From the IMG/VR virus record IMGVR_UViG_3300050190_000017: a stretch of DNA of 64,000 nt. One strand, 5' to 3'. This DNA is from a virus. Lineage: Duplodnaviria > Heunggongvirae > Uroviricota > Caudoviricetes. The first letter of the stretch is position 1, and each line of letters opens with the position of its first letter. The notes beneath the pieces were generated by a model. It saw nothing but the letters and a program-made list of their open reading frames with translations. It ran no database searches and was not told where the DNA came from. Shown piece by piece: positions 25,025 through 63,359 of the stretch. A program made the position numbers and the translations under genes.

Positions 25025-25070
25025 GTAAATGAGGGCAGAGAGCCCTCTAGTATAAATCCGCAAAGGAGAT

Positions 25071-34568: not shown

Positions 34569-34610
34569 AGGGCACGTATTCTTAGCGGAATACGTGCCCT
34601 CTTTTGCGTT
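34569..34610 (+). terminator. rho-independent terminator
   Basis: 13-bp stem AGGGCACGTATTC/GAATACGTGCCCT, loop TTAGCG, then CTTTTGCGTT. Confidence 0.75.
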
Positions 34611-34656
34611 ACGCCCGCAATTTCATTCTAAACATCGCTTCTTTAGGAACAATAGA

Positions 34657-36318
34657 ATGGACCAAACATTAATCACAGCCTCAGAGCTTCTGAACCTCCT
34701 CCAACCTCTTTTTGTTTTAATTGTTGACTACGTTAGCAACGGGCCGGAGAGCAAACCGGACAAGGAAACTGCCCAAGAACTAAAAAGCATTCCTAAAGCA
34801 ATCATCGCTAAGTGGGGAAAGCAACTTCCTTCCCTCCTTCCGTCCATCCAGGCAGCCCTTGCCGGCACGGGTAAAGCAGAACAGTTGGTACTCCTTGGTA
34901 CTGAGATCAAGGAGATGTTCGAGACGTATCGTGCGGAGAAGTCATTCACCTCTCAGGAGATCGACGTACTGAAAGCCCTCGGCCTGTACCTCCGTACCGA
35001 TAGTGAAGCCGCGCTCTCCAAGATTCAGAAGATGGCAGGTATAGTTCATAGTCCTTTCGTTAGCTCTCGGTTTGCTCCCAAACAAGGTCAACAGAAGAGT
35101 GACACGCTCCGCAAGCTAGTGTTCGAGATGGTCGGCCGTGACGACACCGCACTTACTATAGATGAAGCCAAACAGGTTAAGGAAACTCACCCAGAAGAGT
35201 ACGCACAGTACCAAGCATACCGCAAGGAGCACAACCAGGTGTGGAAGGATGCCGTAGTATCCTATGTGCGTAAATCCGGACATGACACAGTTCCCTACGA
35301 GGAGCTCTTGGCCTACCTACACGCCAATGGTATTGAGCACATGCTTCCTGTTGGATTCACAGGCGAGGTTGACGACCTGGGTAGGCTATACACCAACACT
35401 GGTAAGATGATCGACGGTGTCCCCTCGGCTATTATGTTCCCTACCATGATAATGAACAAGCAGTTCGGGAAAGAGGGTGGTAAGGATTTTGTGTTTCAGG
35501 CTATACGTAGCGATGGCGGCCCTGGTCCCTACTTCTACACTTCGGAGTACAAGAAGGAAGCAGCTAAGGCAAAGTTCCAGCACGTCGCTGACCTCGCACC
35601 CAAGATCTTGTCGATGCAGAAAGCCTGGTTCTCCAAGGTTAAACAATTCAAGATTACTGATGCTGAATGTGTAGCCGCCACCATCTTAGAGATCCTGTAT
35701 GAGTTTGCAGCCCGTGTTGGTACTCCAGGTGAAGCGACGTTCGGTGTATCCACCCTGCTGGTAAAACATATGGCTGTAGACCATGCTTCAGGTAACATCA
35801 CTATTCGCTACCTTGGTAAGGACTCCATCAAGACCGTGCATAAGTTGGTAGCGTCTGATCCTACACAGAAGTTTGTTATCAAAGCCTTACTCCAACTGTT
35901 AGCGGGCAAGCAGCCTAAGGACCGAGTGTTCACCGTGGACAAAAGCGCTCGTAAAGTCCCGGTTAATGCCAAGGACGCTAACGCTTACTTCAAAGAGCTA
36001 GGTGCCCCTGCAGGAACAACTGTGCACAAGCTTCGGACCCTGCGAGGTACTCATCTGTTCTCTGAGCTTATGGAGAAGGCTATGGAGAAGCCTCCCAAGG
36101 ACGAGCGTGCTGCACTCGCTATGCTAACGAAGATGGGCGAGCAGGTCGGTAAGTTGCTAAACCATATTAGAACAATGGCTAGCGGTGGAACTAAAGTCAC
36201 GGGCACAACAGCACTAGCCAACTACGTGGACCCAAGCATACAGATCATGTTCTTCCGGCAGTTAGGCTTTCGCATTCCTCGCTTCCTTGAAAAACACGAC
36301 ACAGAGGTGAAGGATTAA
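34657..36318 (+). CDS. type IB DNA topoisomerase-like protein with N-terminal extension
   Basis: ITIRYLGKDSIKTVHKL follows the F.F.GK....H pattern. KLRTLRGTH and ALANYVDPSI resemble the active-site tyrosine motif SKxNYLDPRI of TopIB. The ATG at 34657 has an AGGAAC SD; the track's upstream GTG lies in the terminator stem. Confidence 0.5.
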   Translation: MDQTLITASELLNLLQPLFVLIVDYVSNGPESKPDKETAQELKSIPKAIIAKWGKQLPSLLPSIQAALAGTGKAEQLVLLGTEIKEMFETYRAEKSFTSQEIDVLKALGLYLRTDSEAALSKIQKMAGIVHSPFVSSRFAPKQGQQKSDTLRKLVFEMVGRDDTALTIDEAKQVKETHPEEYAQYQAYRKEHNQVWKDAVVSYVRKSGHDTVPYEELLAYLHANGIEHMLPVGFTGEVDDLGRLYTNTGKMIDGVPSAIMFPTMIMNKQFGKEGGKDFVFQAIRSDGGPGPYFYTSEYKKEAAKAKFQHVADLAPKILSMQKAWFSKVKQFKITDAECVAATILEILYEFAARVGTPGEATFGVSTLLVKHMAVDHASGNITIRYLGKDSIKTVHKLVASDPTQKFVIKALLQLLAGKQPKDRVFTVDKSARKVPVNAKDANAYFKELGAPAGTTVHKLRTLRGTHLFSELMEKAMEKPPKDERAALAMLTKMGEQVGKLLNHIRTMASGGTKVTGTTALANYVDPSIQIMFFRQLGFRIPRFLEKHDTEVKD

Positions 36319-36320: not shown

Positions 36321-37352
36321 ATGAAACAATTCAAACTAAACGCAGCAGCACGATTGGTAGCATCCACTATTACTCAGGCAAAGGCTCCAGCAGCCAGTGA
36401 GTGGTGGCAACATCTAGAGCCCGACCAGAAGAAGGAGTACATAGAGGAACACCCCCACTCGAAGTACGCAGAGGACGCTATTCGAGAGGGCTCTAACGAG
36501 GAATCGAAATCCAAGAAGGATGAAGAGGAGTTGGGTACAGAGCCTGCGGCTAAGTCGCAGATTAATCCAGAGCACCGTAAGAAGATTGCAGGTGGCATTC
36601 GTAAACATGCCCCTAAGATTGCCAGCTTCCTTAAGAAGACATTTCCGCTAATCCATGAAGCTACCTCAGCCCTAAAGCATTTAGCCACCGGTAAGGCCCT
36701 AGAGGAAAACCACAAGGAAGCACTATACGACCTCGGTGGTGTAGCCCTCAAAGCTACTCTTAGCTCTGTTGTTGGTGTTCATGGTGCTCAGGTACTCGGC
36801 CGTATTGGTATTACCGCAGTTAACCACGCAGTGGAACACTTCAAAGAGAAGAAGGAACAGTCCGAGGGTAAGGATGACGTTGAGGTCTTCGTCGAGGCTT
36901 TAGCCGATGGTGTAGAGCAAGCTAAGGAAGCCCCGGTTCCTAAAGAGCATGCTGCACCTAAGAGTAGCTACCGTTCTGCTATCGGTCGGCACATCAGGAG
37001 TAAAGCACACCACATTACACAGGTGCTGGATAAGTCCTTCCAGCATATCAAGCCTGCTACCCAAGGTTTGGTTGCCCTAAGCGAAGGACAGAAGCTTTCG
37101 GATGAACAGAAAACCGCAATGAAGAGCCTGGGTAAGATTACTTTGGGCTTAAGTATCGCCGCACTACCTGGTGGACTGGCTGCCCACTTAGCAGCAGGGG
37201 TTGGCTCAGTAGCAATCACCCACGCATTCAAACTAATACAGAGTGGTAAGTTCAAAGATGGACACATCATCCACCACTTCGTAGAGTCGATTGGCGAAGG
37301 CTTGGAAGATGCCTTGCTTGAGCACACTGCTGGTGGTGAGGGGGAAGGATGA
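36321..37352 (+). CDS. KLNAAxRLLA-tagged protein, two internal repeats with Gly/Ala-rich segment (paralog of 37349)
   Basis: N-terminus MKQFKLNAAARLVAST. Repeated module ...KHLATGK...ALPGGLAAHLAAGVGS. Confidence 0.6.
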   Translation: MKQFKLNAAARLVASTITQAKAPAASEWWQHLEPDQKKEYIEEHPHSKYAEDAIREGSNEESKSKKDEEELGTEPAAKSQINPEHRKKIAGGIRKHAPKIASFLKKTFPLIHEATSALKHLATGKALEENHKEALYDLGGVALKATLSSVVGVHGAQVLGRIGITAVNHAVEHFKEKKEQSEGKDDVEVFVEALADGVEQAKEAPVPKEHAAPKSSYRSAIGRHIRSKAHHITQVLDKSFQHIKPATQGLVALSEGQKLSDEQKTAMKSLGKITLGLSIAALPGGLAAHLAAGVGSVAITHAFKLIQSGKFKDGHIIHHFVESIGEGLEDALLEHTAGGEGEG

Positions 37353-38284
37353 AACTAAACGCGGCGCATCGACTGTTAGCTTCGGAGGATTGGTGGGAAG
37401 CTCTTGATGCCGACCAGAAGAAGCAATACATCAAGGATCATCCAGGCTCCAAGTATGCTAAGGATTCCATAAAGGAAGACTCGAAAGAACCCGAGGCTAA
37501 GGATACACCTGAGCCCCGTAAGGCGTCTGCAGGTGTCCTAAGAACCCACGGCCCTAAGATAGCGAGGCTACTCCGAGATTCATTCCCACTGTTATCCGGA
37601 GCTACCGCAGCCCTAAAGCATCTTGCCACAGGGAAGAAGCTAACTGAGGACCATCGGGATGTTCTCATGGAGCTCGGGGATACAGTCCTGAAATCAGCAT
37701 TGAAGTTCGCAGTAGGTAAGGAACAGGCACACCTTATTCATACTGCTGGTCACGTAGGTGTTCACGCAGTGAAATACGCTACGGAACACTTCAAAAAGAA
37801 CAAAGAGAATTCCAATGGTAAGGACGACCTCGAAGTGTTCGTGGACTCCGTGGCCGAGGGTATAGAGAAAGCCGATGTACCTGATGAAGAGGTATCGACA
37901 CCACCTAAGAAGGGTGCCATTGCTCAGCACATTAAGTCTAAGGCCTCACACATAGCTAAGGTACTAGACCGGTCCTTCCCTAGGGTAAAGCAGGCCACCA
38001 CAGGACTTGTAGCACTGAGTGAGGGTACAGAGTTGAGTGCTGAGCAGAAGAAAGCAATCAAGGGCCTAGGGAAGATGGCATTAGGCATGAGTATAGCGGC
38101 ACTACCTGGTGGGTTTGCCGCACACCTTGTTGCTGGTGCTGGCAGCCTAGCTTTAACTAGCGCGCTCAACGCCATTCGTAAAAGGAAAGTTCCGGAGGGC
38201 AGCGTTCTCCGCCACTTTGTAGAATCCATAGGGCAAGGATTAGAGGATGCTGTAGTGAGCAAAGCTCTAAAGGAAGAAGTATGA
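37349..38284 (+). CDS. KLNAAxRLLA-tagged protein, tandem paralog of 36321
   Basis: MKLNAAHRLLASE N-terminus; long stretches align with 36321. Confidence 0.6.
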   Translation: MKLNAAHRLLASEDWWEALDADQKKQYIKDHPGSKYAKDSIKEDSKEPEAKDTPEPRKASAGVLRTHGPKIARLLRDSFPLLSGATAALKHLATGKKLTEDHRDVLMELGDTVLKSALKFAVGKEQAHLIHTAGHVGVHAVKYATEHFKKNKENSNGKDDLEVFVDSVAEGIEKADVPDEEVSTPPKKGAIAQHIKSKASHIAKVLDRSFPRVKQATTGLVALSEGTELSAEQKKAIKGLGKMALGMSIAALPGGFAAHLVAGAGSLALTSALNAIRKRKVPEGSVLRHFVESIGQGLEDAVVSKALKEEV

Positions 38285-38784
38285 TGAAACTAAACGCAGC
38301 ACACAGGCTACTAGCTAGTCAAATCTTCTACCGAGGCCTAACTCAAACCTGGTCGGATGAACACGCAAAGAACCAGCACATCATCTTCATTACTCCTGAT
38401 CGAGACTACGCCTTAGAGTATGCAAAGGATGAACAGCACGTACTAGAATTTCATGCTGACATAGGGCATAGCTTCGACTTTGGTTTCCGAACGCTACAAA
38501 CGGAAGTTCAGCTGAAGGATGTAACCGATCGGGTGAAGCGTGGCATACTCTCGCAATTCCAGGAGGGTCACATCACTAGAGAAAAGGGTATGGAGCTCAT
38601 GGACGAACTAGCAGAGGTAAAGGGTTCCGGTTATAAGCATGTGTGGGAGTGGTACATGCAACTACCTGAGCTAGTTAGGATCCTCAAGGCTGCTGGGTTT
38701 AACTCTGTAGAAGGCAAGGAAGGAGTGAACGACGATATTCCTACCTACGGAGTATTCAGTGTTCACCAACTTAAACGTGTATAA
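38281..38784 (+). CDS. KLNAAxRLLA-tagged hypothetical protein (167 aa)
   Basis: MMKLNAAHRLLASQ; a YRG follows the tag, but no complete ART triad was seen. Confidence 0.55.
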   Translation: MMKLNAAHRLLASQIFYRGLTQTWSDEHAKNQHIIFITPDRDYALEYAKDEQHVLEFHADIGHSFDFGFRTLQTEVQLKDVTDRVKRGILSQFQEGHITREKGMELMDELAEVKGSGYKHVWEWYMQLPELVRILKAAGFNSVEGKEGVNDDIPTYGVFSVHQLKRV

Positions 38785-38821
38785 CTAGCAGTATTGATTT
38801 TCAGCTACTAGGAGAATCAAA

Positions 38822-39034
38822 GTGCCTAACGCATTAATCAATAAAGATGTCCGTGAAGGGCGTGGTACTAAGAAGAAATTGGAGAAGGACTGGGAGAAGT
38901 CTAAGAAGGACGCTGAGAAATCGCATCCTGATAACAAGTGGGCTTTGACTAACTACATTTACCAAAACCGGAGGGACGCCTCTGTCTTGGATGACGTAGA
39001 GGTTAGCGCGGCCCGTCGCTTACTGGGTAAGTAG
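38822..39034 (+). CDS. hypothetical basic protein (70 aa)
   Basis: ORF track; GTG start after GGAGAATCAAA. Confidence 0.45.
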   Translation: MPNALINKDVREGRGTKKKLEKDWEKSKKDAEKSHPDNKWALTNYIYQNRRDASVLDDVEVSAARRLLGK

Positions 39035-39097
39035 TAGCACTGACTAGCTGTATTGAATCCGGTGCTAACCCCACCTAACTTCAAATGTGAGGCAGTC

Positions 39098-39250
39098 ATG
39101 ACTAAGGTTAATGTAAGTCAAAACGTGAGTCAGAGTACGACTCAAGAGCAGAACCAGCAACAGCAACAAGGTCCAGGTGAACCTGAGGAGAATGGTCAGG
39201 AGCAGGAACAGGAGCAACCTGGACAAGAGCAGGAACAAGGCGACGAGTAA
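39098..39250 (+). CDS. Gln/Glu-rich low-complexity protein (50 aa)
   Basis: ATG with GAGG SD. The track ORF starts at an upstream TTG. Confidence 0.35.
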   Translation: MTKVNVSQNVSQSTTQEQNQQQQQGPGEPEENGQEQEQEQPGQEQEQGDE

Positions 39251-39336
39251 TCTAGCCTGAACGTGGGCCGTACACCGGGTAGAAGTACAGCCCACCTAGC
39301 CTCATTGATTCTACCATTTTCAATGAGAGCTACGAG

Positions 39337-40752
39337 ATGAAGATTAACGCAGCCTCCAGACTACTAGCTAGTCAAAAGTTAGCAACACACGATGGTCGCC
39401 TCTTACTCTTGGGCTTTGGTGCTGTAGGGCAGACGATGTTACCAATGCTCCTCCGCCACATAGATCTGAATCCCTCCAAGATAACTGTTTTGGATAAGGT
39501 AGAGCGCCCTGAATTCGCTCCCTACACAGGCATTCACTACGTAGTGCGTGAGATAGTAGAAGACAACATGGGCTCTACTCTTGAGTCCTTACTAGCTGAA
39601 GGTGATTACCTCGTCAACCTAAGCTTGAACATCGATGGAATAGCTATTGTAGAGTGGTGCCTATCCCATAACGTTATGTACATCGACACGTCCATTGAGC
39701 GTTGGGCTACCTCACCCGACGAGACAATACCCGATCTAGCAGAACGTACTTTGTACACAGAGCATCAAGAGATTAGGGAGATGGCTTCCAAGTACCCAGG
39801 TCATGCTACCTGTGTAGTAACGCACGGGGCTAACCCTGGGCTAGTATCGCATTTCACAAAAGCTGCATTACTCAAGATTGCTAAGGATACCGGATTATCT
39901 ACTGAGGTTCCACAGAACCAAATGGGTTGGGCAGCTCTAGCCGAGGCCACTGATACTAAGGTGATTCAAATAGCAGAACGCGATACACAGATACTGAAGG
40001 TTCCTAAGCGCGTACATGAATTCGTTAACACCTGGAGCTGCGAAGGCTTCTGGGCTGAGGGTAGAGCACCTGCTGAACTAGGTTGGGGGTCGCACGAACC
40101 GCAAGAGGTTGGTGGCTTAACTGTGCAGGGGAATTCAGCGTATCTCGACACTCCCGGAGTAGCCACCCTCGTGAAGTCCTGGGTGCCTCTTGGTGGTACG
40201 TATAACGGATTCCTAATCCAGCACTCAGAGGCAGTAACGATCAGTGAGTATCTATCCACTGATTCCTATAGACCTACAGTGTACTATGCGTATCAGCCGA
40301 CAGATGCAGCATTGGCCTCAATCCATGAGATGCGTGGACAAGAATTGTGGATGCACCGTAATACTAGGATTGCTAAGAACTCCATACTAAGTGGTATCGA
40401 TGAACTAGGGGTGTTGCTCCTAGGTCATGGTAAGAATGCGCTGTGGTATGGCTCTCAATTAGATATAGAGGAAGCTCGATCGTTAGTTCCTGGTCAGAAT
40501 GCAACTACTGTGCAGGTATGTGCCTCACTGCTAGGGGCTATAGTATGGACGTTAGAGAATCCGAGAATGGGTTATTGTGAGCCAGAAGACTTACCCTTCG
40601 ACTTTGTGCTGTCAATAGCTAAACCCTACCTTGGTCCTATGGTGGCTTACTATTCAGATTGGAGTCCCTTGGATAACAGAGGGCACCTGTACAAGAAGGA
40701 TTTCGATGAAGATAACGAATGGGCTTTCACAAACTTTTTAGTAGGGAAATAG
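39337..40752 (+). CDS. KLNAAxRLLA-tagged homospermidine synthase-like / saccharopine dehydrogenase-family NAD(P)-binding enzyme
   Basis: Tag MKINAASRLLASQ, then the Rossmann motif LLLLGFGAVGQ. Length of 471 aa and overall pattern fit bacterial HSS. Confidence 0.55.
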   Translation: MKINAASRLLASQKLATHDGRLLLLGFGAVGQTMLPMLLRHIDLNPSKITVLDKVERPEFAPYTGIHYVVREIVEDNMGSTLESLLAEGDYLVNLSLNIDGIAIVEWCLSHNVMYIDTSIERWATSPDETIPDLAERTLYTEHQEIREMASKYPGHATCVVTHGANPGLVSHFTKAALLKIAKDTGLSTEVPQNQMGWAALAEATDTKVIQIAERDTQILKVPKRVHEFVNTWSCEGFWAEGRAPAELGWGSHEPQEVGGLTVQGNSAYLDTPGVATLVKSWVPLGGTYNGFLIQHSEAVTISEYLSTDSYRPTVYYAYQPTDAALASIHEMRGQELWMHRNTRIAKNSILSGIDELGVLLLGHGKNALWYGSQLDIEEARSLVPGQNATTVQVCASLLGAIVWTLENPRMGYCEPEDLPFDFVLSIAKPYLGPMVAYYSDWSPLDNRGHLYKKDFDEDNEWAFTNFLVGK

Positions 40753-40755
40753 AAA

Positions 40756-41379
40756 ATGAAGTTAAACGCAGCTACTAGGTTAATCGCAGTCACCTTGACA
40801 GAGTATCTGAAGGACTTGAAGTCACAAGGTATAGAGCCTGTAGCAAAGGGCTCTCACGCCTTTGTCTTTCAGCATCTAACAGATCCGACGACGATGGTGA
40901 AGGTGTTCACTCACGACCCTGCGTTCGAATCGTATACGAAGTTCTGTCAGGCTAATCCCCACAATCCGTATCTATTGAAGATCAAGGGCGAGCACCACGA
41001 CGAACACGGTCTGGATCCTGATCCGAAGTACAAAGGCCACATTTGGAACTCAGATAAGACAGGACTTCACGTGGTCTTCATGGAGAAACTGACTCCTATG
41101 TCAGAAGCCCAGTTCAAGAAGTTCATCTATGGACTGGAGACTATATGCTTTGTACCGCACCAGAAAAACCTCTCGGTATACCAGTCTAAGGTTAGTCCGC
41201 TGTGGACCCGCCTATGTGAGATAAAGACTTCGCGTGGCGCACCCTTAGATCCGAATCTAAAACAATTCGCCGAGTGGCTTGTAGCTGAGTACAACACTGG
41301 TGATGGCTACCCGGACATCCACAAGGACAACTTCATGATGCGCGGAAGGCAGGTTGTCATAGTGGACCCGACTTCTTAG
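40756..41379 (+). CDS. KLNAAxRLLA-tagged protein-kinase-like fold protein
   Basis: Tag, then a G-loop-like GSHAFVF, a Lys in MVKVF and catalytic-loop-like DIHKDNFMM. Confidence 0.45.
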   Translation: MKLNAATRLIAVTLTEYLKDLKSQGIEPVAKGSHAFVFQHLTDPTTMVKVFTHDPAFESYTKFCQANPHNPYLLKIKGEHHDEHGLDPDPKYKGHIWNSDKTGLHVVFMEKLTPMSEAQFKKFIYGLETICFVPHQKNLSVYQSKVSPLWTRLCEIKTSRGAPLDPNLKQFAEWLVAEYNTGDGYPDIHKDNFMMRGRQVVIVDPTS

Positions 41380-41388
41380 GACCTGACA

Positions 41389-41958
41389 ATGAAACTAAAT
41401 GCAGCTACACGACTACTAGCACACAAAGATGGTGAAGAATGGGTCCCTGGGGTGAGGGGGTACCACTACGCGGTTGGTTGCCTACTCCTAGCTGCAGACA
41501 CACTGAACTTCAGTTTCCAACTCCGTAGCACTACTTCGGATACGCCAAACACGTACGGTTGTTGGGGAGGTTCTATCGACGGTAACGAGGAAACGTTCAC
41601 CGCACTCAAACGGGAACTTAGAGAGGAAACAGGATACACAGGTGAGATGAAGATATTCCCTCTCATGACGTACTATGATGCAGACCGCGGATTTCAGTAC
41701 GCTAACAATCTCGTAGTCATTCCTAAGCAATTCGAGATTAATTCTCCACCTGAATTCGCTGAGGAAACCGCAGGTAACGTATGGGTGCCGTATAATGAGT
41801 GGCCTGATCCCCTACACCCTGGGCTAGAATCATTGCTAGCTGATCCACAGTCGATGCGCTCAGTTGAGATGGAAATCTCCAGAATAGAAAACGCGAAGAA
41901 GAATGGCGTCGACCCTCTGAAGATGAGCGCGGCGTACAGACTTACCCACTTTGATTAG
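41389..41958 (+). CDS. KLNAAxRLLA-tagged Nudix hydrolase
   Basis: Tag, then the Nudix box GGSIDGNEETFTALKRELREETGY. Confidence 0.75.
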   Translation: MKLNAATRLLAHKDGEEWVPGVRGYHYAVGCLLLAADTLNFSFQLRSTTSDTPNTYGCWGGSIDGNEETFTALKRELREETGYTGEMKIFPLMTYYDADRGFQYANNLVVIPKQFEINSPPEFAEETAGNVWVPYNEWPDPLHPGLESLLADPQSMRSVEMEISRIENAKKNGVDPLKMSAAYRLTHFD

Positions 41959-41960
41959 AC

Positions 41961-41968
41961 TGTAAATA
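41961..41968 (+). promoter_or_regulatory. TGTAAATA box
   Basis: After the stop of 41389, upstream of 42010. Confidence 0.4.
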
Positions 41969-42009
41969 GTGGTTGAAACATAACAACTTTTAGCCTTACG
42001 GAGATTTAG

Positions 42010-42354
42010 ATGCTTGTATCTGGTACTATGCAGGACTGCGCTCTCGGTAAATGGGATCGCCACGTAACAACGTTTATGAAAGATATGTTCTGGAACTCAC
42101 TCAAAGAACGGTTGATCACCCTTGACAAAGCACCTGGAGTAGAGTTTGTTTACTACGATGCTTCCCTCACTGCACAGAACAGGAAACGAACTAAGTTTGT
42201 GAAGATCGCTACTTCCGGTGAGGTGCAAGTAGATGTGAGACTTCGTAACGGTGAGTTCAAGTCCCAATACTTTAGCCTCAATACCGTGTGCGCTACCATA
42301 GAGTGCTTTGCACAGCAAGTCCAGAAGCAATTCCCCGCTCTAGCCGTAAACTAA
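42010..42354 (+). CDS. hypothetical protein (114 aa, untagged)
   Basis: ORF track; ACGGAGATTTAGATG. Confidence 0.5.
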   Translation: MLVSGTMQDCALGKWDRHVTTFMKDMFWNSLKERLITLDKAPGVEFVYYDASLTAQNRKRTKFVKIATSGEVQVDVRLRNGEFKSQYFSLNTVCATIECFAQQVQKQFPALAVN

Positions 42355-42418
42355 GTCCCTCCTTCAACTCCAGGTCAATTTTATAATAATTAAAATAGTT
42401 GATCTGGAGGCACCCAAA

Positions 42419-43648
42419 TTGCCGTACAAGAATAGTACGAATAATCGTCTTCTACCTCCCAATGCTCGTGGTGCCGATGTAGCTGAGAAGGCTATCACCG
42501 AGGTGATGGCTATCCAGCAGAACAAGACGTACAATGCCTTCAGAGCCCAGGGAATTTCCTGCTGCCACTACAACCGTTTGCTCCAAGGTCGTAAGTGTAG
42601 CTGCCAAGCATCTGGTAAACAGATCAACGGTATCCTCGGCAAAGATGGTAAGGCATCCCAAGGTGATATTAACTCGATGTTGACTGGCGCTATGGAGTTT
42701 ACGATCACTCCGTACGAGCAGCCTAATCGACAATTCCCAAATAACATCACTGAGACTTCGCCGTTCTCTACCGACCCAAACCAAGGGCAATTCTCACTTG
42801 GTAGCACTGGAGAAGGCGGTGACTTCCCCTTCGAGGTCATCACAGAAGGTATCGACTTCGAGGATAACGGCCCTCTTAACTCGACCACCATAGATGATCT
42901 AGTAGGTGACTTCGATGCATCTGTTCTCGGCTTCTCGGATGTAGCGTGTCCCATTTGTTTTGGCACTGGATTCATTGGTGGGTTTGCCCCATTCCACGCG
43001 CACCGTACAGTCCTCACCGTTACGGACGTTAAGTTATCCCAAGAAGGCGAGATCAACGTAACGAGGAAGCCACTTACCGCTAAGGCGCAAAACTTCTCGG
43101 TCATTGTGAAGTTTCCTCGTGGTGCTATAGGGATAGATGTATTCAAGGTGTGGAATATGGCGAAGGCGGTTCCTGCTACCTTTAGCATCGATGGAACTCC
43201 CATTACGAATCCTACACAGGTACTAGCCTTGTGTGACGGAGGTCCTCACTTACTAACTGCCAATGTTAATGGGGAGTTCTCCCACCTAGAGATTCAATTC
43301 GCACTCACTACTGAGTCGGTGTATTTTGAATTCCCGAAACGTAACATAGGAACCGATATATCGTTGCTGGAACAGATGGAACCCTTCCAGATTGTATTGA
43401 GTCCTAATGTACCTACTATTAACTCCCAGGATATTATCGTGGAGTCACAGCTTGGTAAAGTCCTGGTCGTACAATCAGTCAATACGTGGAAGTCTCGGCA
43501 ACGTTCAATCCTAGGTTGGGAAGTTCAGGTGCGAGTAATACAGCCGCAGGAGCTATATAGAATACTGCCTCCTCGTGGTCGTATCATGTCTAAGGACAGG
43601 ACTACACTGAACTCGAGGGATAACGTTACCGGCAAGTACAGAACGTAG
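42419..43648 (+). CDS. hypothetical protein (409 aa, untagged)
   Basis: ORF track; TTG start 9 nt after GGAGG. The minus-strand ORF 42568-43203 is judged a shadow. Confidence 0.5.
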   Translation: MPYKNSTNNRLLPPNARGADVAEKAITEVMAIQQNKTYNAFRAQGISCCHYNRLLQGRKCSCQASGKQINGILGKDGKASQGDINSMLTGAMEFTITPYEQPNRQFPNNITETSPFSTDPNQGQFSLGSTGEGGDFPFEVITEGIDFEDNGPLNSTTIDDLVGDFDASVLGFSDVACPICFGTGFIGGFAPFHAHRTVLTVTDVKLSQEGEINVTRKPLTAKAQNFSVIVKFPRGAIGIDVFKVWNMAKAVPATFSIDGTPITNPTQVLALCDGGPHLLTANVNGEFSHLEIQFALTTESVYFEFPKRNIGTDISLLEQMEPFQIVLSPNVPTINSQDIIVESQLGKVLVVQSVNTWKSRQRSILGWEVQVRVIQPQELYRILPPRGRIMSKDRTTLNSRDNVTGKYRT

Positions 43649-43709
43649 TACCGAACATACTAGAATACAATTTAATCTTATTCAGATCTCGAATTCGTAA
43701 GGAATAATA

Positions 43710-45107
43710 ATGGTCAAGACTAATGCAGCCGCTCGCCTCCGCGCTTCCTCGGGTATTACTGCCACGAAGAAGTCAGCAACAGCTAAGAACAAAACAGTAG
43801 CCCGAACTCGTGTCCACGCGATCGAACTACCGAAGTTTCGTTACATCGATGACGTCACTCGCTTCCTAGATACTATGAAGGAAGAGATCGACGAGAACGA
43901 GAAGGTTATTAAGGTACACCAAACTCAGTTGGCCTTCCTAAAGAAGCCAAAGGAGTGGGTTGGTGCTACTCTAGTTAAGGCTGCTGAGATGGAACTCACC
44001 ATCAAAGAAGGTGAAGGTGGGTCAAATAAATCACGACTCAAGCGTAAGATTGATCCAGAACTTACTAAGGTGGTGGTCCCTAACGTTAAGAAGCTGGAAG
44101 AGCAGTACTCTCTCTCTGAGGACCTATACGAGAAACATCGTACCCTAGAAGCAGTGGAAGCTCAACTCTCTATGCAGTTCCCGGATCGTCGTGGTGAAGC
44201 GTATACAGCTACTATAGCTGCACTCCATGAGTTGAAAGGTAAGGTTGCTAAGCAGTTGAAAACGGTCTTAGGCTTCCTAAATGAAGTGGCAGCCAAGCAT
44301 GTGCCGAAGACCTTCGAGAAGTACATCGACGTTATTCGTCAGGAAGTGCAAGAGCACGTTATGTTTGAGGACTCCAATCTGTTCCTCTACGTATCGACTT
44401 CTGCTGAAGGCCAGATCGTTTTCACCTACTACCTGATGCTGATTAACGCTACTAACGATGAAGGTAAGGTAACGCCTAGCCTGTACATCTCAGTGCAATG
44501 GGTTGTTGGTGAGTCTACTACGATTCAGATTAACCCAGAGTACGAACTCCCGGGTCAACTGCTGAAAGAGGGAGGTGAATCGGTTGGCTCAGCAGGCGAG
44601 GCAGTTAAAGCTATCTCTGATCTCTTAGCTCTAGAAGACTTCAGCTCCTCGCTCGGTACTGTGCCGTTGTCCACGCAACTGCGGAAACCCCTGAACGAGT
44701 TGAAGCCAGAGATGTTTAGCTACAAGGATTTCATTCAGAAGCTGGATGTAGATGAAGATAAGCTAGTGTTCAAGCTGCGTAAAGGTGTTGAGCCTGAGCA
44801 AGCCAAGGAAGTTGCGTATGCCCTGTACCAGGAAGTAAAGGGGTTGTTTAAGAGCTCACGCACTGCTAAGATTCGAATGAAGCCCTCTAGCACGCAAATT
44901 GAATTCACAGTGACCAACGTAGCGAAGGGTAGAGAGGTCTCAGTGCACGATGCTGAATTCCTAGGCCAGAAGTTTGGATTAAATAACGCCCAACTCCGAA
45001 AAGTTCTTTTGATTCTGAACAGTGGCATCGGAGAAGAAAGTAAGCCTTCCGAAGCTCCTGAAACCAAAGCTGAGCAGCCGACAGGTAAAGAGAAGCTGTG
45101 GCTCTAG
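43710..45107 (+). CDS. KLNAAxRLLA-tagged hypothetical protein (465 aa)
   Basis: MVKTNAAARLRASS; AAGGAATAATAATG. Confidence 0.6.
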   Translation: MVKTNAAARLRASSGITATKKSATAKNKTVARTRVHAIELPKFRYIDDVTRFLDTMKEEIDENEKVIKVHQTQLAFLKKPKEWVGATLVKAAEMELTIKEGEGGSNKSRLKRKIDPELTKVVVPNVKKLEEQYSLSEDLYEKHRTLEAVEAQLSMQFPDRRGEAYTATIAALHELKGKVAKQLKTVLGFLNEVAAKHVPKTFEKYIDVIRQEVQEHVMFEDSNLFLYVSTSAEGQIVFTYYLMLINATNDEGKVTPSLYISVQWVVGESTTIQINPEYELPGQLLKEGGESVGSAGEAVKAISDLLALEDFSSSLGTVPLSTQLRKPLNELKPEMFSYKDFIQKLDVDEDKLVFKLRKGVEPEQAKEVAYALYQEVKGLFKSSRTAKIRMKPSSTQIEFTVTNVAKGREVSVHDAEFLGQKFGLNNAQLRKVLLILNSGIGEESKPSEAPETKAEQPTGKEKLWL

Positions 45108-45148
45108 CATGATACTTAGCAGCATTGAAAACTTACTAAGGATTCCCT

Positions 45149-45418
45149 ATGTTTAAACTCAATGCTGCTTCTCGATTACTTTCTATGTACGAGGTCCACG
45201 CTGACCCTTTTGAAGGCTGGATCAACAGCCTCCAGTTCACCTACGATCGCCCAGAGGGTGCTAACTATGTCACGGTAGACGCCACACTCTCTGAGGTAGT
45301 CTCCAAGTTGAAAAGCGATGGGTGGACGTCAACAGGCTCCGGTGAGTTTAGTAAAGGTGAGCACAAGTGCCACGTAGCCAAAGAGGGTAACAAGGCTCGC
45401 ATAACCGACCGAGGCTAA
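45149..45418 (+). CDS. KLNAAxRLLA-tagged hypothetical protein (89 aa)
   Basis: MFKLNAASRLLSMY. Confidence 0.55.
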   Translation: MFKLNAASRLLSMYEVHADPFEGWINSLQFTYDRPEGANYVTVDATLSEVVSKLKSDGWTSTGSGEFSKGEHKCHVAKEGNKARITDRG

Positions 45419-45424
45419 CGCATA

Positions 45425-45763
45425 GTGGCTAACACTAGAGAGATTAATATGAAAGCTGCACACCGACTAGTAGCGTCCCTTATAGAGGAGCAAGCCATGT
45501 TGAGTACCCACCTGATTGAACTACTAGCGAACTATGGTATCGAAGCGGAGTCACCAGATGACGCAAATAATTCCCTGCTAGTGTACGAGGAAAGCCCCCG
45601 TATCGTCATGGCCTTGGCGTTAGCTCGATGGATCTCAGATGAACCTCGGCAGGTCAACGGTGGTATGTACTGTGCGGGCACTACAGTTCAATTGAAACAG
45701 AAGGGACAGACTATCCGCCTACTGACGACAGCGCCAGGAAGGTCTGTACTATGGCTAATATGA
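45425..45763 (+). CDS. partially tagged hypothetical protein (112 aa; MKAAHRLVASL starts at the second Met, 45449)
   Basis: ORF track; true start at 45425 or 45449. Confidence 0.5.
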   Translation: MANTREINMKAAHRLVASLIEEQAMLSTHLIELLANYGIEAESPDDANNSLLVYEESPRIVMALALARWISDEPRQVNGGMYCAGTTVQLKQKGQTIRLLTTAPGRSVLWLI

Positions 45764-46473
45764 AAGAGACAAAAGCAATGCACGCACCTAGGCACAGAAC
45801 AGGTGAGACTGCCCCAATAGCAGATGGGGAACTATCAATTGGCGATCCTGACATCTGGGGTAACGGCATTAACAACACGTTAGTTCAGCCATCTATAGGA
45901 GTATCAGGCGTCAAGCTGAACGCCGCACACAGGCTGTTAGCTGCAGCTGAACCCCTCCCTGAATGGGTTTCACATACTATACAGCAGTGGATAAGTGGCG
46001 GTTCTGGTAGATTCACCTCCGCGCAAATGCAGGATGCCCTAAAAGCTTTCCACGTCGTTAGAGAAAGCTACCGTAGTACACTACCGAAGGTAGTGTATCG
46101 AGGGTTGCTTATCCCTGAGACCGCGCTGACAAAGATCCTAAACGGCAAGCCGTTGAAAGTAGAGCCCGCTGTTCTTTCATCCTGGACCTCAGATCCTAAA
46201 GTTGCATTGAAGTACGCCAACGTCACCTGGGATACACCTTTAGAACAGATCGGAATTATATTAGCTATTCATACGCCACCGTCAGCTCTGTTCTATATAG
46301 ATAAAAAGTTCATACGTACTGTCCTGGATGATCCATTTTCCCACGATCAGAAAGAGGTAGTGGTTCAGGGGCCAGGTGTGTCCCACGTTAGCAGAGACAA
46401 CATACTAGCCGTAGTCTCAGAGACTAATACCCCTCTTAAGGTTTCAGAGTACCTGAAGGGAATTGAAAAATGA
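45751..46473 (+). CDS. Alt/C3-like mono-ADP-ribosyltransferase (R-S-E class) with internal KLNAAHRLLA tag
   Basis: VVYRGLL (Arg), LSSWTSD (STS-like) and DQKEVVVQGPG (QxE plus hydrophobic strand) in canonical order and spacing. The tag begins at about residue 56. Confidence 0.65.
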   Translation: MANMKETKAMHAPRHRTGETAPIADGELSIGDPDIWGNGINNTLVQPSIGVSGVKLNAAHRLLAAAEPLPEWVSHTIQQWISGGSGRFTSAQMQDALKAFHVVRESYRSTLPKVVYRGLLIPETALTKILNGKPLKVEPAVLSSWTSDPKVALKYANVTWDTPLEQIGIILAIHTPPSALFYIDKKFIRTVLDDPFSHDQKEVVVQGPGVSHVSRDNILAVVSETNTPLKVSEYLKGIEK

Positions 46474-46574
46474 ACAACACATTTGTCTACTTCGCACAGC
46501 CAACAGAAAACACATTAGTAGCTCCGAACCTAACGCCTATGCTTGCTCCAGGTGAAACGACATGCAATTAAATG
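46473..46574 (+). pseudogene. truncated duplicate of the 5' end of gene 47092 (33 codons), running into the start of 46562
   Basis: Nucleotides 46473-46560 are about 85% identical to 47092-47180. Both encode MNNTFVYFAQPTENTLVAPNLT(S/P)MLAPGET. Confidence 0.6.
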
Positions 46575-47095
46575 CAGCCTCTAGGCTCGTAGAGTCTATG
46601 CCTATTAGGATGCGAGAGAACTACACTCAACTAGAATTTGATCGAGACGTAGAGTTTCTTGAAAAACGATTGAAAACTAAGCCTGCTGTACCACTTGGCA
46701 CAAAAGAAGGTTTGTCCTTATACTACCTGAAGTTGACTTATTCTCGTGACTTTTTCTTAAAAGATAGAGATAGAATAATTGGAATATTGTCTACGACGGC
46801 CAAAGGCAACATGGTTATCAGTGTTTTTATCGAAGAAGAATACAGGGGACGACATTTAGGTCTTGTACTATATCTAGCAGCTATTCATGTTCTAGGTGAA
46901 CTTCAAAGTTCAAGCATTATAGGTATAATGGCAGTTAGAACCTGGAGATCCGTATCTAAGTACTATTCAGTGGAACTACTAGATCATCTTCAGGTACCTG
47001 TGGATTTCTCTTGGGGTACCGATACAATACCTATTGTAAAAGGTAAACCTATAAATAAACTTAGAGGGAATTTTTACTTTAAGGTGAAAGCATGA
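46562..47095 (+). CDS. KLNAAxRLLA-tagged GNAT-family acetyltransferase
   Basis: MQLNAASRLVES, then the GNAT motif-A-like VFIEEEYRGRHLGLVLYLAAIHVL. Confidence 0.55.
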   Translation: MQLNAASRLVESMPIRMRENYTQLEFDRDVEFLEKRLKTKPAVPLGTKEGLSLYYLKLTYSRDFFLKDRDRIIGILSTTAKGNMVISVFIEEEYRGRHLGLVLYLAAIHVLGELQSSSIIGIMAVRTWRSVSKYYSVELLDHLQVPVDFSWGTDTIPIVKGKPINKLRGNFYFKVKA

Positions 47096-48618
47096 ACAAT
47101 ACATTCGTCTATTTTGCACAGCCCACAGAGAATACATTAGTCGCACCAAACCTAACGTCTATGCTTGCTCCAGGTGAAACGATCACCAGCATAGTATTGA
47201 CTGCGGTAACACCGACTACTGCTCCACCGCTCACAGCAGTCTTGCAGTCAGGTGCTAATCCTGTAACGCAGATCCTGTTATCCGGTGGTATTGCTGGTAC
47301 TGCTTACGGCTTCCAGATTCTGGCTACTACTAATGCTCGGGTGCTCACAGCTCAGGTAGCAGTCACAGTTCAGGATGAATTATTTGTACCGTACGCCACA
47401 CAGAATCCGCAGGCGTTCACCGACCTGGTTGATGAAATCCAAGCAGGCATGGCAGCAATTGGTACTGCTATCTTTAGCTTCCCTGCTACTATTGACCCAC
47501 GTGGAGGCTTTGTAACCTGGGAACTCTTAGCCTCAGACGGCACAGTGTACGCAGCAGGTAACGCCTACAACTATTTGGTACAGTCGAACGGTTTGGCTAA
47601 CACAGTCCTAGCTAACGCAGTTATCACAGTGCCCTCTACAGTACCACCTAGCTTAGATAACCAACGGTATCAACTTCGATATACGTTAGAACTCCCGCAG
47701 GTACAGAACCTGCAAAATGATCCACTGCAAGGTCAGGTATCGCAGAATGCTTTCTTCTCCTACGAGAACATCCGTGTAGTAGGGTTGAATACGGTACCTT
47801 TGGGCACGCAGTCTACAGTTGAACTGCAAGGCAGCCCTGCTAACCTATCGATTGTACTAGATCAGCTGTACGATAACGTCACCGTCGAATTGTGGGCTGG
47901 CGGTGTACAGGTAGCAGCCCCGTCCCTTATTGGTAACTCAGAACGTACTGCTAATGGTTGGTACTACGCAGGGGTCATCGACACCCAGCAGTTGATGGTA
48001 TCCCTTGTCCCCTACACTGTGATCTGGAAGTATTGGTATTCGTCACAAGCCTCGCTCGTCTACCAGGAATCAGCAGACCTGTTCGTTATCAATGCATCTA
48101 TGATGACAGCTATTACTGATGTACGGTCGAAGATCAACAAGGCGAACACTACGCTGTATGGTACTCCTGACATGCTGTACCCTAACCAAACGATCATGAC
48201 TTGGTTGCGTCGGGGTGCGGATGCTTTCAACGGTGCGTACGGGGTATTCACCAACTTCAGCTTCACCAATGCCTTAGGGGTCATCCGTGAATACTGGTTG
48301 ATGCACGCTGAGATGTTTGCTCTGGAATCGCAGGTAACGGCAGAAGCAGAGAAGGCATTCCAGTTCCAGGGTGCTGCTATTACCTTGGACATTGATCGTA
48401 CAGCAGGGTTCGATGCTGCTATCTCTAAGATTCAGTCGAGGTTGGACAATGAGCTGAAGGCGTTGAAGCAGAACTTGGTAATGCGTGGGGTGATGGGGGG
48501 CGATGGCTCCACCGATCCGACTATGCTACAGCACGGCGCTATCGGTGCAGTGGGTATTACGATCTCTCCTGTTACCATGTGGGGTAGATACGGCAGAGGC
48601 TACGGTCAGCTATTCTGA
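47092..48618 (+). CDS. hypothetical protein (508 aa), possibly virion-associated
   Basis: ORF track. Its 5' end is duplicated upstream of the inserted GNAT gene. Confidence 0.6.
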   Translation: MNNTFVYFAQPTENTLVAPNLTSMLAPGETITSIVLTAVTPTTAPPLTAVLQSGANPVTQILLSGGIAGTAYGFQILATTNARVLTAQVAVTVQDELFVPYATQNPQAFTDLVDEIQAGMAAIGTAIFSFPATIDPRGGFVTWELLASDGTVYAAGNAYNYLVQSNGLANTVLANAVITVPSTVPPSLDNQRYQLRYTLELPQVQNLQNDPLQGQVSQNAFFSYENIRVVGLNTVPLGTQSTVELQGSPANLSIVLDQLYDNVTVELWAGGVQVAAPSLIGNSERTANGWYYAGVIDTQQLMVSLVPYTVIWKYWYSSQASLVYQESADLFVINASMMTAITDVRSKINKANTTLYGTPDMLYPNQTIMTWLRRGADAFNGAYGVFTNFSFTNALGVIREYWLMHAEMFALESQVTAEAEKAFQFQGAAITLDIDRTAGFDAAISKIQSRLDNELKALKQNLVMRGVMGGDGSTDPTMLQHGAIGAVGITISPVTMWGRYGRGYGQLF

Positions 48619-49302: not shown

Positions 49303-49683
49303 ATGTTTGATTTGCGCGCCGCATACCGGCTTAGGGATTCAGAACTTCGTTCAAGCACGAATGTACAAACCCCGGCAGTTGCCAATGTACCATTAGAGGC
49401 AGCCTTCGACCAAACACGCGACCCTGATTTACAGAAGATTGAGCAGCAACTTCGTAAGGTAAACGTGTTCTTCACGCTGTCCAAGAACCACTTGTATCAT
49501 AAGAGCAATCGAGGAGACGTGGTTGAGGAGGCCGAGCTCTGTTCAGAGATCCTTAACGATCTTGGGTATCAGTTGCACATTCAACCCGGCATCTTTGAAC
49601 GTTCAAGCTTTGCGCTCAAGGGTACGAAGGGTTTGGTCCTCCAGAAGCTCAACAACGATCTTCGTATTTTCTTTTCAGTTTAA
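49303..49683 (+). CDS. hypothetical protein with divergent tag-like N-terminus MFDLRAAYRLRDS (126 aa)
   Basis: In-frame ATG of track ORF 49108-49683. The minus-strand ORF 49083-49484 is judged a shadow. Confidence 0.45.
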   Translation: MFDLRAAYRLRDSELRSSTNVQTPAVANVPLEAAFDQTRDPDLQKIEQQLRKVNVFFTLSKNHLYHKSNRGDVVEEAELCSEILNDLGYQLHIQPGIFERSSFALKGTKGLVLQKLNNDLRIFFSV

Positions 49684-50236: not shown

Positions 50237-50554
50237 ATGTGGGCACGTCGGACAAGACCAGCTAAGAGAAACGCGTTCGGCGTGGCTACTATTAGGCGAG
50301 ACTCGTACAATACCCAGAGCGGTATGTCGGTAAAAGCGGGCTGGTGGGAAATTAGTGCTGCAGTCCGTAAGCGATCTGGAGGAAAGTGCGAGGCGCGTAT
50401 TAATGGTGTGCGGTGTAACGCTCCCGCTAAGGACTGCCACCACATAGTACCGCTCTCAAAGGGTGGTGCGAACCTAATAAGTAACCTCCTACACATTTGT
50501 GAGGACTGCCATAATCGACGCCATACTCACCTAATGCGAGCCCGAGGTAAATAA
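50237..50554 (+). CDS. HNH endonuclease
   Basis: CEARINGVRCNAPAKDCHHIVPLSKGGANLISNLLHICEDCHNRRH. Confidence 0.7.
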   Translation: MWARRTRPAKRNAFGVATIRRDSYNTQSGMSVKAGWWEISAAVRKRSGGKCEARINGVRCNAPAKDCHHIVPLSKGGANLISNLLHICEDCHNRRHTHLMRARGK

Positions 50555-50808
50555 TGCAGATACAACTTAATGCGGCCTCTCGACTACTAGCTGCTACAAA
50601 GGTACAGCCTGGAATGAAAGTAGCAGAAGCCCGAAACCCCGACGAGTATATTGGAACTGTACTCGATATTAAAGTAGCGCGTAAAGAAGAAGTCGCTATG
50701 GTAGACGTAGGCGGAGGTGTGCGATCTATGTACCGCTTACCAGAACTTGTAGAGTACAAGGGAAAGAAGACACGGCCTGCTGGTATTACGTTCCCTGGCC
50801 TAACGTAA
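50554..50808 (+). CDS. KLNAAxRLLA-tagged small protein (84 aa)
   Basis: MQIQLNAASRLLAATK. Confidence 0.55.
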   Translation: MQIQLNAASRLLAATKVQPGMKVAEARNPDEYIGTVLDIKVARKEEVAMVDVGGGVRSMYRLPELVEYKGKKTRPAGITFPGLT

Positions 50809-50824: not shown

Positions 50825-51295
50825 ATGGAAAATGAACAGCAACTCCAAGAGCTTATAGCTCTGTTTCTTAAAGTTAATCCCGATCCATCTGATGATCAAT
50901 TCCATGCACTAGCGGGCGCCTGCGGAGTAGATCATGCTACGCTCGAAGCAATCAGCTACTCCATGCTTGCTGAGTCAGAAGAAGTGCTGGCCGATGCAGA
51001 AGTAGACGTAGAAAGTATCGGTGGCGGGCAAGGTGATGTAGGTCTCAGCGATGCCCAACAAGTACTGGACGGTGACTATGATCCTAACGTTACTCAAACT
51101 GATGACCTGCTGCTTAATGACGGAGCTCCTGCTTCTGATACATCAACTCAACGTCTGCAGGACACGACGTTGAACGACGGAGTGAGTGTCGGTGATACAG
51201 GTTCGGGTATTGCTAGTCAGGAGATGCTGTATAGCGATGGATTAGCTCCTCTGAAGTTGGGTGCATCAGCTCGTTTGCTTGCCACTGCTAAGTAA
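50825..51295 (+). CDS. acidic protein ending in a C-terminal tag-like LKLGASARLLATAK
   Basis: ORF track; tag-like motif at the C-terminus. Confidence 0.55.
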   Translation: MENEQQLQELIALFLKVNPDPSDDQFHALAGACGVDHATLEAISYSMLAESEEVLADAEVDVESIGGGQGDVGLSDAQQVLDGDYDPNVTQTDDLLLNDGAPASDTSTQRLQDTTLNDGVSVGDTGSGIASQEMLYSDGLAPLKLGASARLLATAK

Positions 51296-52069: not shown

Positions 52070-52471
52070 ATGTTTAGTTTCCTCCCCTCCATTACTTCCG
52101 CTCTGTCGGCAATCCCAGTATTCGTTGTTGGTGCGGTTGCCGGTATACTTATCTACCGCTTTGTCTTGGTTAAGAACCCCAGCCTACTCAACACGTTGGT
52201 CACTAAGGCAAAGACGGACATCTCGTCCGTCGAAGCTTTGATTGTTCGGAAAAAGGCAATCCTGCCTGTTGCCGTGGTTCCGGTTGTTGTAGCTGTGAAA
52301 GTTGCTCCTGTAGCAGTTGAACCTGTAGCTGTTGCTCAACCGGTAGCCGCACCCGTAGCTGTTGCTCCAGTTGTAGTTGCTCCAGTAGCACCTGTCGTTG
52401 CCCCTGTAGCTGTTGCTCCGGCCGTTGTTGCACCGGTAGCTACTCAACCTGTGGCAGCTCCTGCTGCCTGA
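52070..52471 (+). CDS. membrane-anchored protein with (P)VAVAPV repeat tail
   Basis: N-terminal TM helix, then VAP-rich tandem repeats. AGGAGAATCACTATG. Confidence 0.55.
   Translation: MFSFLPSITSALSAIPVFVVGAVAGILIYRFVLVKNPSLLNTLVTKAKTDISSVEALIVRKKAILPVAVVPVVVAVKVAPVAVEPVAVAQPVAAPVAVAPVVVAPVAPVVAPVAVAPAVVAPVATQPVAAPAA
52264..52470 (+). repeat. imperfect tandem 9/12-nt repeats encoding (P)VAVAPV units
   Basis: Read directly. Confidence 0.6.
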
Positions 52472-63314: not shown

Positions 63315-63359
63315 GATCACGCCAGACACACTGAATAATCCATTGGAGAATAAACAAAA

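Follow-up and report, generated by a model that had tools for sequence, protein, structure and literature searches.

A short peptide tag shared by unrelated proteins in the structural modules of RSL1-like jumbo phages: a putative virion-docking signal

An array of tagged genes

The stretch of DNA analyzed here (the window) comprises 64,000 nucleotides of a virus of the class Caudoviricetes, IMG/VR record IMGVR_UViG_3300050190_000017. It contains an array of genes whose otherwise unrelated products carry the same short peptide, called the tag here (Table 1). The window was searched for the tag in all six frames, with a regular expression and with position weight matrices (PWMs). The scans locate 17 copies, distributed over 16 genes; every copy is on the plus strand and within an open reading frame (ORF), between positions 36330 and 58147. 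PWMs built from the tag copies find the same 17 sites again, with scores of 15–38 bits. The regular expression gives a single weak match in the rest of the window, on the opposite strand, and neither method finds a copy in the first 36 kb. As a control, reversed translations produce 3–4 matches per roughly 0.5 million positions. The first-pass annotation of this DNA had proposed at least 13 tagged genes; the array is real, and larger than claimed.

Thirteen of the tags are N-terminal and begin 0–4 residues past the initiator Met. Three are C-terminal (in 38822, 41389 and 50825, the genes being named by their first position), with 0–2 residues between the end of the tag and the stop codon, and one is internal (45751). 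The gene 38822 had been listed as untagged, which is wrong, as its ORF ends in VEVSAARRLLGK, directly followed by the stop codon. The N-terminal tag described for the NUDIX hydrolase (41389) is present, but it is not a single copy, the protein having a second, C-terminal tag (LKMSAAYRLTHFD, followed by the stop codon). The internal location in 45751 is borne out by the codon preceding the tag Lys, GTC, which is not a start codon.

Table 1. Genes of the tag array and of its surroundings in the window.
Position	Strand	Length (aa)	Gene or product	Tag	Remarks
36321..37352	+	343	All-helical WW-motif family, paralogue A	N-terminal, 36330-36365, FKLNAAARLVAS	WW motif 36399-36500
37349..38284	+	311	WW-motif family, paralogue B	N-terminal, 37349-37384, MKLNAAHRLLAS	WW motif 37391-37492
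38281..38784	+	167	Tagged gene	N-terminal, 38284-38319, MKLNAAHRLLAS	
38822..39034	+	70	Small protein	C-terminal, 38996-39031, VEVSAARRLLGK	
39337..40752	+	471	Homospermidine-synthase-like	N-terminal, 39337-39372, MKINAASRLLAS	Saccharopine dehydrogenase domains
40756..41379	+	207	Protein-kinase-like	N-terminal, 40756-40791, MKLNAATRLIAV	
41389..41958	+	189	NUDIX hydrolase	N-terminal, 41389-41424, MKLNAATRLLAH; C-terminal, 41917-41952, LKMSAAYRLTHF	Two tags
43710..45107	+	465	Tagged gene	N-terminal, 43713-43748, VKTNAAARLRAS	Cargo conserved in relatives
45149..45418	+	89	Tagged gene	N-terminal, 45152-45187, FKLNAASRLLSM	
45425..45763	+	112 or 104	Tagged gene	N-terminal, 45443-45478, INMKAAHRLVAS	112 aa from GTG 45425, 104 aa from ATG 45449
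45751..46473	+	240	Tagged gene	Internal, 45910-45945, VKLNAAHRLLAA	53-residue N-terminal extension before the tag
46562..47095	+	177	Weak GNAT similarity	N-terminal, 46562-46597, MQLNAASRLVES	
49303..49683	+		Tagged gene	N-terminal, divergent, 49306-49341, FDLRAAYRLRDS	
50554..50808	+	84	Tagged gene	N-terminal, 50560-50595, IQLNAASRLLAA	
50825..51295	+	156	Tagged gene	C-terminal, 51251-51286, LKLGASARLLAT	Tag followed by AK and the stop codon
58106..58402	+	98	Tagged gene	N-terminal, 58112-58147, IQLNAAARLVEV	Directly upstream of prohead protease
34594..36318	+		Topoisomerase IB	Untagged	Immediately precedes the array; orthologue of RSL1 ORF108
47092..48618	+		Head-tail connector/adaptor		Within the array
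50237..50554			HNH endonuclease		Within the array
52070..52471		133	Pro-Val-Ala repeat protein		Just upstream of the SNF2 gene
52636..57213	+	1525	SNF2-family helicase	Untagged	Same position in all relatives
58406..59224	+		Prohead (head maturation) protease		Follows tagged gene 58106
59233..60861	+		SprT-like zinc metallopeptidase-domain protein		
60996..62567	+		Acidic scaffold candidate	Weak internal tag-like stretch, 61221-61256, AKTQAAKRIKAD	Invariant N-terminal K-x-(I/V)-x-A-A
63359..64000	+		Major capsid protein, start MREKIKVRAAKTPMVAASQYKF		Continues beyond the window end

Conservation of the tag

The consensus of the tag in the window is 12 residues long, Φ-K-L-N-A-A-x-R-L-L-A-S. The invariant Arg is encoded by each of the six Arg codons (CGA, AGG, AGA, CGC, CGT and CGG), and the invariant Leu likewise by each of the six Leu codons. 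In pairwise comparisons over seven core positions of the tag, 336 codon differences are synonymous and 77 are non-synonymous. This synonymous turnover, together with the use of all six codons at the Arg and Leu positions, indicates, as the first-pass annotation had held, that the conserved unit is the peptide and not a DNA repeat. Purifying selection acts on the tag at the level of the peptide.

In a test for Sec, Tat and lipoprotein signals, no hydrophobic core of at least 10 residues was found in the tag sequence. With C-terminal and internal copies also present, the tag is not Sec/Tat-like, in agreement with the earlier view.

The tagged proteins

The tagged products of the window are encoded by separate genes and range from 70 to 471 residues. 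Despite the shared tag, the proteins attached to it (the cargo) have no mutual similarity. Domain matches confirm the cargo assignments made previously for the NUDIX hydrolase and for the saccharopine-dehydrogenase/homospermidine-synthase fold of 39337, the orthologue of which in RSL1 (ORF110) lacks the tag. The kinase-like assignment of 40756 is supported by a PHROG match (E = 3.4e-6), and the GNAT assignment of 46562 is weak, with an E value of 0.0065 that falls short of the Pfam cut-off. An ADP-ribosyltransferase of the R-S-E type had also been proposed for 45751 and 38281. Searches of Pfam, NCBIfam, PHROG and PDB sequences return nothing for either protein, and this assignment is not confirmed. 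The C-terminal domain of 45751 does show an R / S-x-T / Q-x-E pattern, an unverified resemblance to ADP-ribosyltransferases; the AlphaFold model of this protein, from a two-sequence input, has a pLDDT of 39.8 and is unusable.

The N-terminal tag of 37349 is kept in all 15 of its homologues (15/15), in which it is joined to the conserved WW motif by a linker of 0–20 residues. AlphaFold models 37349 (mean pLDDT 73) as an all-helical domain. Residues 1–12, which are the tag, have pLDDT values below 50, and a short helix of low confidence (residues 5–10) is not packed against the domain. A fold search with this model against viral predicted structures and the PDB gives no match at E ≤0.001.

The WW motif itself, WW(D/E)xL..QKKxYIxxHPxSKYA, follows the tag in the two paralogues of the window and is widespread. 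A profile of 15 homologues matches 316 cluster representatives at E ≤0.001. Some of the proteins contain 2–4 copies of the motif, and in others it is fused to topoisomerase IB. Of the proteins scanned in this survey (P0018–P0166 among them), 67 of 166 carry the tag, nearly all at residues 0–6.

The small protein 38822 belongs to a family with the pattern MPxxLxxKxxxE..W.KAKK. Among its homologues, BcepSauron gp098 has a C-terminal tag and RSL1 ORF112 an internal one. An untagged member of the family is located directly after the prohead protease in the distant Vibrio phage GR11A (L046, 4485-4679), and homologues are sometimes fused ahead of WW-family proteins (P0023, P0050).

Placement of the tag in homologous proteins

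Homologues of the same cargo carry the tag at different places. In the NUDIX family the tag is N-terminal, C-terminal or at both ends, the last arrangement being that of the window. In the 50825 family, 42 of the 57 homologues, including some with as little as 35% identity, have the tag 0–4 residues from the C-terminus, and these C-terminal tags are preceded by a conserved SDG(L/A)(A/P)P stretch. About 10 of the 57 have an internal tag with an extra domain after it, and the tag of the BCSR5 homologue is N-terminal. In RSL1, the tags of ORF112, ORF125 and ORF141 are found at domain junctions.

The internal tag of 45751 is explained by a fusion at the tag, as its parts are separate in one related locus (L035). 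There, the first ~52 residues of the protein together with the tag form a small ORF of their own, just upstream of the connector gene.

On the evidence of these homologues, the tag is modular and independent of position. That homologous cargo may have it at either end or where two domains meet is in keeping with a docking signal and speaks against signal peptides, N-degrons and translation-initiation elements.

Distribution among related phages

A megablast search of the tag block against phage records gives no nucleotide match, and relatives were therefore traced through the protease protein. The protease of the window is 67–73% identical to its counterparts in RSL1 and in the Burkholderia phages BcepSauron and BcepSaruman; the identity is 62% for BCSR5 and 56% for Achromobacter phage Motura. 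The gene order is that of RSL1: topoisomerase IB is followed by NUDIX, homospermidine synthase and further genes, and these by the connector, the SNF2 helicase, the protease, the scaffold-like protein, a structural protein of 225 aa (62637-63314 in the window) and the capsid protein. Judged by these genes, the window comes from a jumbo phage related to Ralstonia phage RSL1. The same phage is also recorded as a metagenomic contig of 218,861 bp.

The first-pass annotation had called for a search of related phages and metagenomes for the tag on other cargo, and such cargo is abundant. The relatives scanned were RSL1, BcepSauron, Motura, BCSR5 and 22 loci from IMG/VR, each anchored at its connector gene. 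Almost every one of them is tagged, with up to 14 tags in 21 kb (L022) and with 8 and 7 in two other loci (L017 and L009). After deduplication, ~20 related contigs yield 97 unique tags, of which 80 are N-terminal, 10 C-terminal and 7 internal or unclear. Their consensus for the clade is Φ-(K/Q)-(L/I)-N-A-A-x-R-L-x-A-(S/A/T). BLAST sorts the proteins attached to them into 53 clusters, of which 37 have a single member. In RSL1, ORF120, 123, 124, 127 and 133 carry a shifted form, A-A-x-x-R-L, and the NUDIX gene ORF109 has the tag with the standard spacing; ORF111 is counted among the tagged proteins as well. ORF120 is the homologue of 49303, the gene of the window with a divergent tag, and its N-terminus reads MLKNAVHRLRATA.

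A strict degenerate DNA pattern retrieves nine loci from metagenomes, eight of which are fragments of this lineage, several with 3–4 tags per 1.7–2.9 kb. The same pattern has a single, chance-like match among 185,579 species, each represented by one genome. Distant tagged contigs keep head and tail genes of the RSL1 type, with a capsid protein 67% identical to that of RSL1 in one of them (L053). No tag is found near the homologous protease in Vibrio phage GR11A, Xanthomonas phage PhiXhv-12, Rhizobium phage RHEph12 or Dickeya phage AD1, the last a member of the sister group of Mieseafarmvirus. By these scans, the tag, which is present in dozens of metagenomic contigs, is confined to one phage clade, that of the RSL1-like jumbo myoviruses.

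In the complete 227-kb genome of BCSR5, convincing tags occur only at 121–148 kb, in the head module, and at 196 kb and 217 kb, in the tail and fiber modules; among the tagged genes are those at 121374, 121678, 122058, 126152, 132830, 140220, 196362 and 216926. The replication and metabolism region (0–120 kb) has no convincing tag. In other relatives, the tagged genes adjoin the connector, protease, sheath and tube genes. As far as its placement in these genomes shows, the tag is restricted to the structural modules of the clade.

Two further contigs show variants. In the first (L050, 2358-3623; JGI 3300051225), a variant tag, KL(N/E)AKQRLLAT, is followed by THLEAA, and one 421-aa protein has two tandem tags, 24 residues apart. 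The second (L055; JGI 3300049475) encodes a WW-family protein and has no R-L tag. A different common N-terminus (MRKIKVTVAGS, MRKIQITVAGS, MKIKHVILAAN, MKIKHVKIVTAG, MVKQLTVTIAS) is present on at least 6 of its 21 genes, those concerned being at 1305, 2590, 4217, 4499, 7308, 8162 and 8371. This N-terminus resembles those of the capsid and scaffold proteins in the clade of the window. Going by this contig, another lineage may use another tag.

Neighboring genes

The tag block had been described as lying a few kb upstream of the head-morphogenesis genes. The tagged genes are interleaved with head and neck genes, namely the connector (47092) and the protease (58406). The SNF2 and SprT-like proteins have no clear tag. 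The N-terminus of the SprT-like protein (59233-59330) consists of a Cys-rich stretch and then a tag-like SLGASKRLQEAL, with a score below threshold. The scaffold candidate contains three THFxNEE repeats; its family is labeled 'ATPase' by PHROG, yet an ATPase domain was not found in it. The HNH endonuclease gene has counterparts at the matching place in RSL1 (ORF122) and Motura (gp179). The protein encoded at 52070 begins with a hydrophobic segment and also contains a long repeat of Pro, Val and Ala (VAPVAVAPVVVAP...).

The first 36 kb of the window are untagged. They include the C-terminal part of RtcB, tRNA-Gln, NAD-dependent DNA ligase, NMNAT/Nudix and NAMPT (69-590, 10707-10781, 20416-27649), the NAD-salvage set being the same as in RSL1.

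A putative docking function

The tag probably puts unrelated late proteins into the virion for delivery with the DNA. In the explanation that we favor, with a probability of roughly 0.55, it is a short and autonomous peptide for docking, by which proteins made late are drawn into the virion as this assembles. The core of the tag, Φ-(K/Q)-(L/I)-N-A-A-x-R-L-x-A-(S/T/A), is probably an amphipathic helix and would function at any exposed site, be it one of the two termini or the junction between domains. It would bring unrelated proteins from the structural-gene operons to one common virion partner, most likely in the procapsid interior, where the core of the scaffold, the capsid protein with its inner face, and the portal are candidates. 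The tagged proteins would then be packaged and delivered with the DNA to the next host. This partner, the capsid destination and injection into the host are inferred, and the prohead protease may or may not remove the tag. The proposal of the first-pass annotation, a shared targeting tag, stands insofar as the tag is autonomous, modular, under purifying selection and placed in structural modules; a T4-style protease site after the tag is not consistently present.

Several points weigh against this explanation. No conserved residue at a fixed offset and no conserved protease site follows the collected tags, and the 10 residues past the tag show no enrichment of Glu (50 of 75 observed, 44.7 expected, p ~0.1). 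The C-terminal tags end 0–4 residues after R-L, so near the stop codon that no downstream cleavage site is possible. Packaging is predicted from the genes, and late expression is presumed from gene position. Moreover, homospermidine synthase is a metabolic enzyme, an odd cargo for packaging. In favor of the explanation, topoisomerase IB, the orthologue of which directly precedes the array, is reportedly named among the virion proteins of RSL1 in the abstract of Yamada et al. 2010.

A weak lead to the receptor may come from the first half of the tag. Its K-Φ-x-A-A is similar to the way in which two other proteins begin, the scaffold candidate with its invariant N-terminus (KKITAAQ and variants) and the capsid protein (KIKVRAAK), and the topoisomerase IB of Motura begins with MRITAAQ. 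The motif holds little information, and the likeness was noticed post hoc. The scaffold was also considered as the source of the tag and rejected. Its internal tag-like stretch is weak; it aligns in the window and BCSR5, and is absent in RSL1, BcepSauron and Motura.

More tentatively, RSL1-like phages could run an encapsulin-like, plug-and-play loading, in which a position-independent helical peptide docks carriers into the procapsid and an arsenal of at least 12 enzymes is delivered with the DNA. New effectors may then be gained by fusing to the tag or splitting at it, and other lineages may have other tags.

If the tag does load the capsid, the proteins that a whole jumbo-phage clade injects could be listed directly from their N- and C-termini; the list currently has 53 cargo families, most of them of unknown function. 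The tag would provide a 12-residue handle to package foreign proteins in large capsids. It would represent a second, independent instance of the capsid-targeting principle of T4, free of the N-terminal and cleavage constraints, and would show that phage effector arsenals are built through gene fusion and fission at a tag. As cultured isolates exist (RSL1, BcepSauron, Motura and BCSR5), the idea is testable at once.

Alternative explanations

The tag might instead dock proteins onto a hub that does not belong to the virion. This could be a chaperone of the phage or of the host, an unfoldase or a protease (the tag being a timing degron), or a cytoplasmic assembly or replication factory. Modularity and position independence would suit any short linear docking motif, homospermidine synthase and NUDIX could plausibly act in the producing cell, and neither a cleavage site nor a receptor has been found. 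We nevertheless consider such a hub unlikely. The tags are all in structural modules, the early and metabolic genes of BCSR5 (~120 kb) and the first 36 kb of the window being free of them, and they follow one capsid and protease lineage and are missing from its sister group. For the degron form, the internal and near-terminal copies are ill-suited to terminal degrons.

Less probable again is that the tag is mainly a recognition and cleavage propeptide for the prohead protease, which would cut free the mature proteins and split domain-tag-domain fusions. At its N-terminus, the capsid protein shows a conserved stretch, P-(M/V)-x-A-A-(S/T)-(E/Q/D)-(Y/F), every member of the WW family keeps (A/P)-(S/A/T)-E just before the WW, and several tags continue into A-S-E or A-S-Q. 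In BCSR5, xELLAA or xLLEAA directly follows the tags. The terminus of the tag, L-x-A-(S/T), resembles the sites of herpesvirus assemblin. However, the apparent excess of A-(S/T)-E after the tag arises because the tag itself ends in A-S, and the lack of a fixed-offset residue, of Glu enrichment and of anything downstream of the C-terminal tags, as described above, speaks against a propeptide. The prohead protease has no Pfam match and no meaningful match to PDB sequences from which to deduce its cleavage specificity. A propeptide would in any case still require the proteins to be within the prohead, making it a variant of the virion-docking explanation.

An amphipathic membrane-targeting helix that carries late proteins to the inner membrane is very improbable. 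The tag can be drawn as amphipathic, with one face made up of L2, A5, L8 and L9 and the opposite one of N3 and R7, and such helices are known at either terminus of proteins. The hydrophobic face would however be small and Ala-rich, the invariant N, A-A and R-L point to a specific protein groove, and the cargo consists of soluble enzymes. Finally, the tags do stand at gene starts a few bases past the preceding stop codon and mark points of fusion and fission, but the idea that they are functionless remnants of gene duplication or recombination joints can be set aside, being contradicted by the codon analysis (synonymous turnover is saturated while the residues are invariant), by retention of the tag across proteins of 35–50% identity and at C-termini, and by the lack of a DNA-level repeat.

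Comparison with known systems

The content of the module recalls the polyvalent injected proteins of phages and conjugative elements (Iyer et al. 2017, as cited in PMC7824862), in that SNF2, SprT-like, NUDIX, weak GNAT, kinase-like and possible ADP-ribosyltransferase proteins are encoded together in a virion module. Polyvalent proteins are one giant polypeptide with a MuF-type anchor, whereas the proteins here are encoded by separate genes, each with its own tag, and the SNF2 and SprT proteins are without a clear one.

Giant phages of the phiKZ/SPN3US type, to which the clade of the window is unrelated, are described (PMC7411985, PMC10052503) as packaging many non-structural proteins in the head and ejecting them, with a prohead protease that handles the propeptides. 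Their inner-body proteins have in common a cleavage motif, S/A/G-x-E, and paralogy, and not a targeting peptide. When this motif was sought here, A-(S/T)-E was found after some tags and in the capsid N-terminus, the excess being traceable to the A-S ending of the tag.

The internal proteins of T-even phages are very diverse and have in common only the capsid-targeting sequence (CTS), which leads them into the scaffolding core (PMC3012670). Like the CTS of T4 (IPI-III and Alt), the tag is a peptide of about 10 residues common to unrelated, fast-evolving proteins. In both cases the genes lie among the head genes or close to them and are late genes (here by their position), enzymes that modify the host belong to the cargo, and new cargo can evolve by plugging onto the peptide (PMC3012670). 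On the other hand, the tag is unrelated in sequence to MKTYQEFIAE, and no conserved (L/I)-x-E cleavage site follows it. The CTS is strictly N-terminal, whereas 10 of the 97 tags are C-terminal and 7 internal. The tag is also present on 16 genes in one genome segment, with encapsidation here predicted from the genes.

Encapsulin cargo-loading peptides are short, stand at the N- or C-terminus of diverse enzymes, are joined to them by a flexible linker, and dock inside a shell of the HK97 fold. The tag is similar in being terminal at either end, in its diverse cargo and in its linkers. The shell, however, would be a phage capsid of the T=27 class with scaffold, portal and protease. Encapsulins have a stand-alone shell gene with no portal, tail or terminase, while the capsid gene here has genes for protease, scaffold, connector, sheath and tube around it. 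The motif is also unlike the Gly-Ser-Leu type, and docking to the capsid protein is putative here. The CTS is the closest precedent for the mechanism, and in its position independence the tag is closer to the encapsulin peptides. The literature searched, on the clade, on capsid targeting in jumbo phages and on virion proteomes, with the primary RSL1 papers outside the search, does not describe the tag. The GenBank notes for RSL1 and BcepSauron have no proteomic labels. The principle of capsid targeting is known; new here are the sequence of the tag, its position independence, the lack of an obligatory cleavage site, and the unusually large number of copies per genome.

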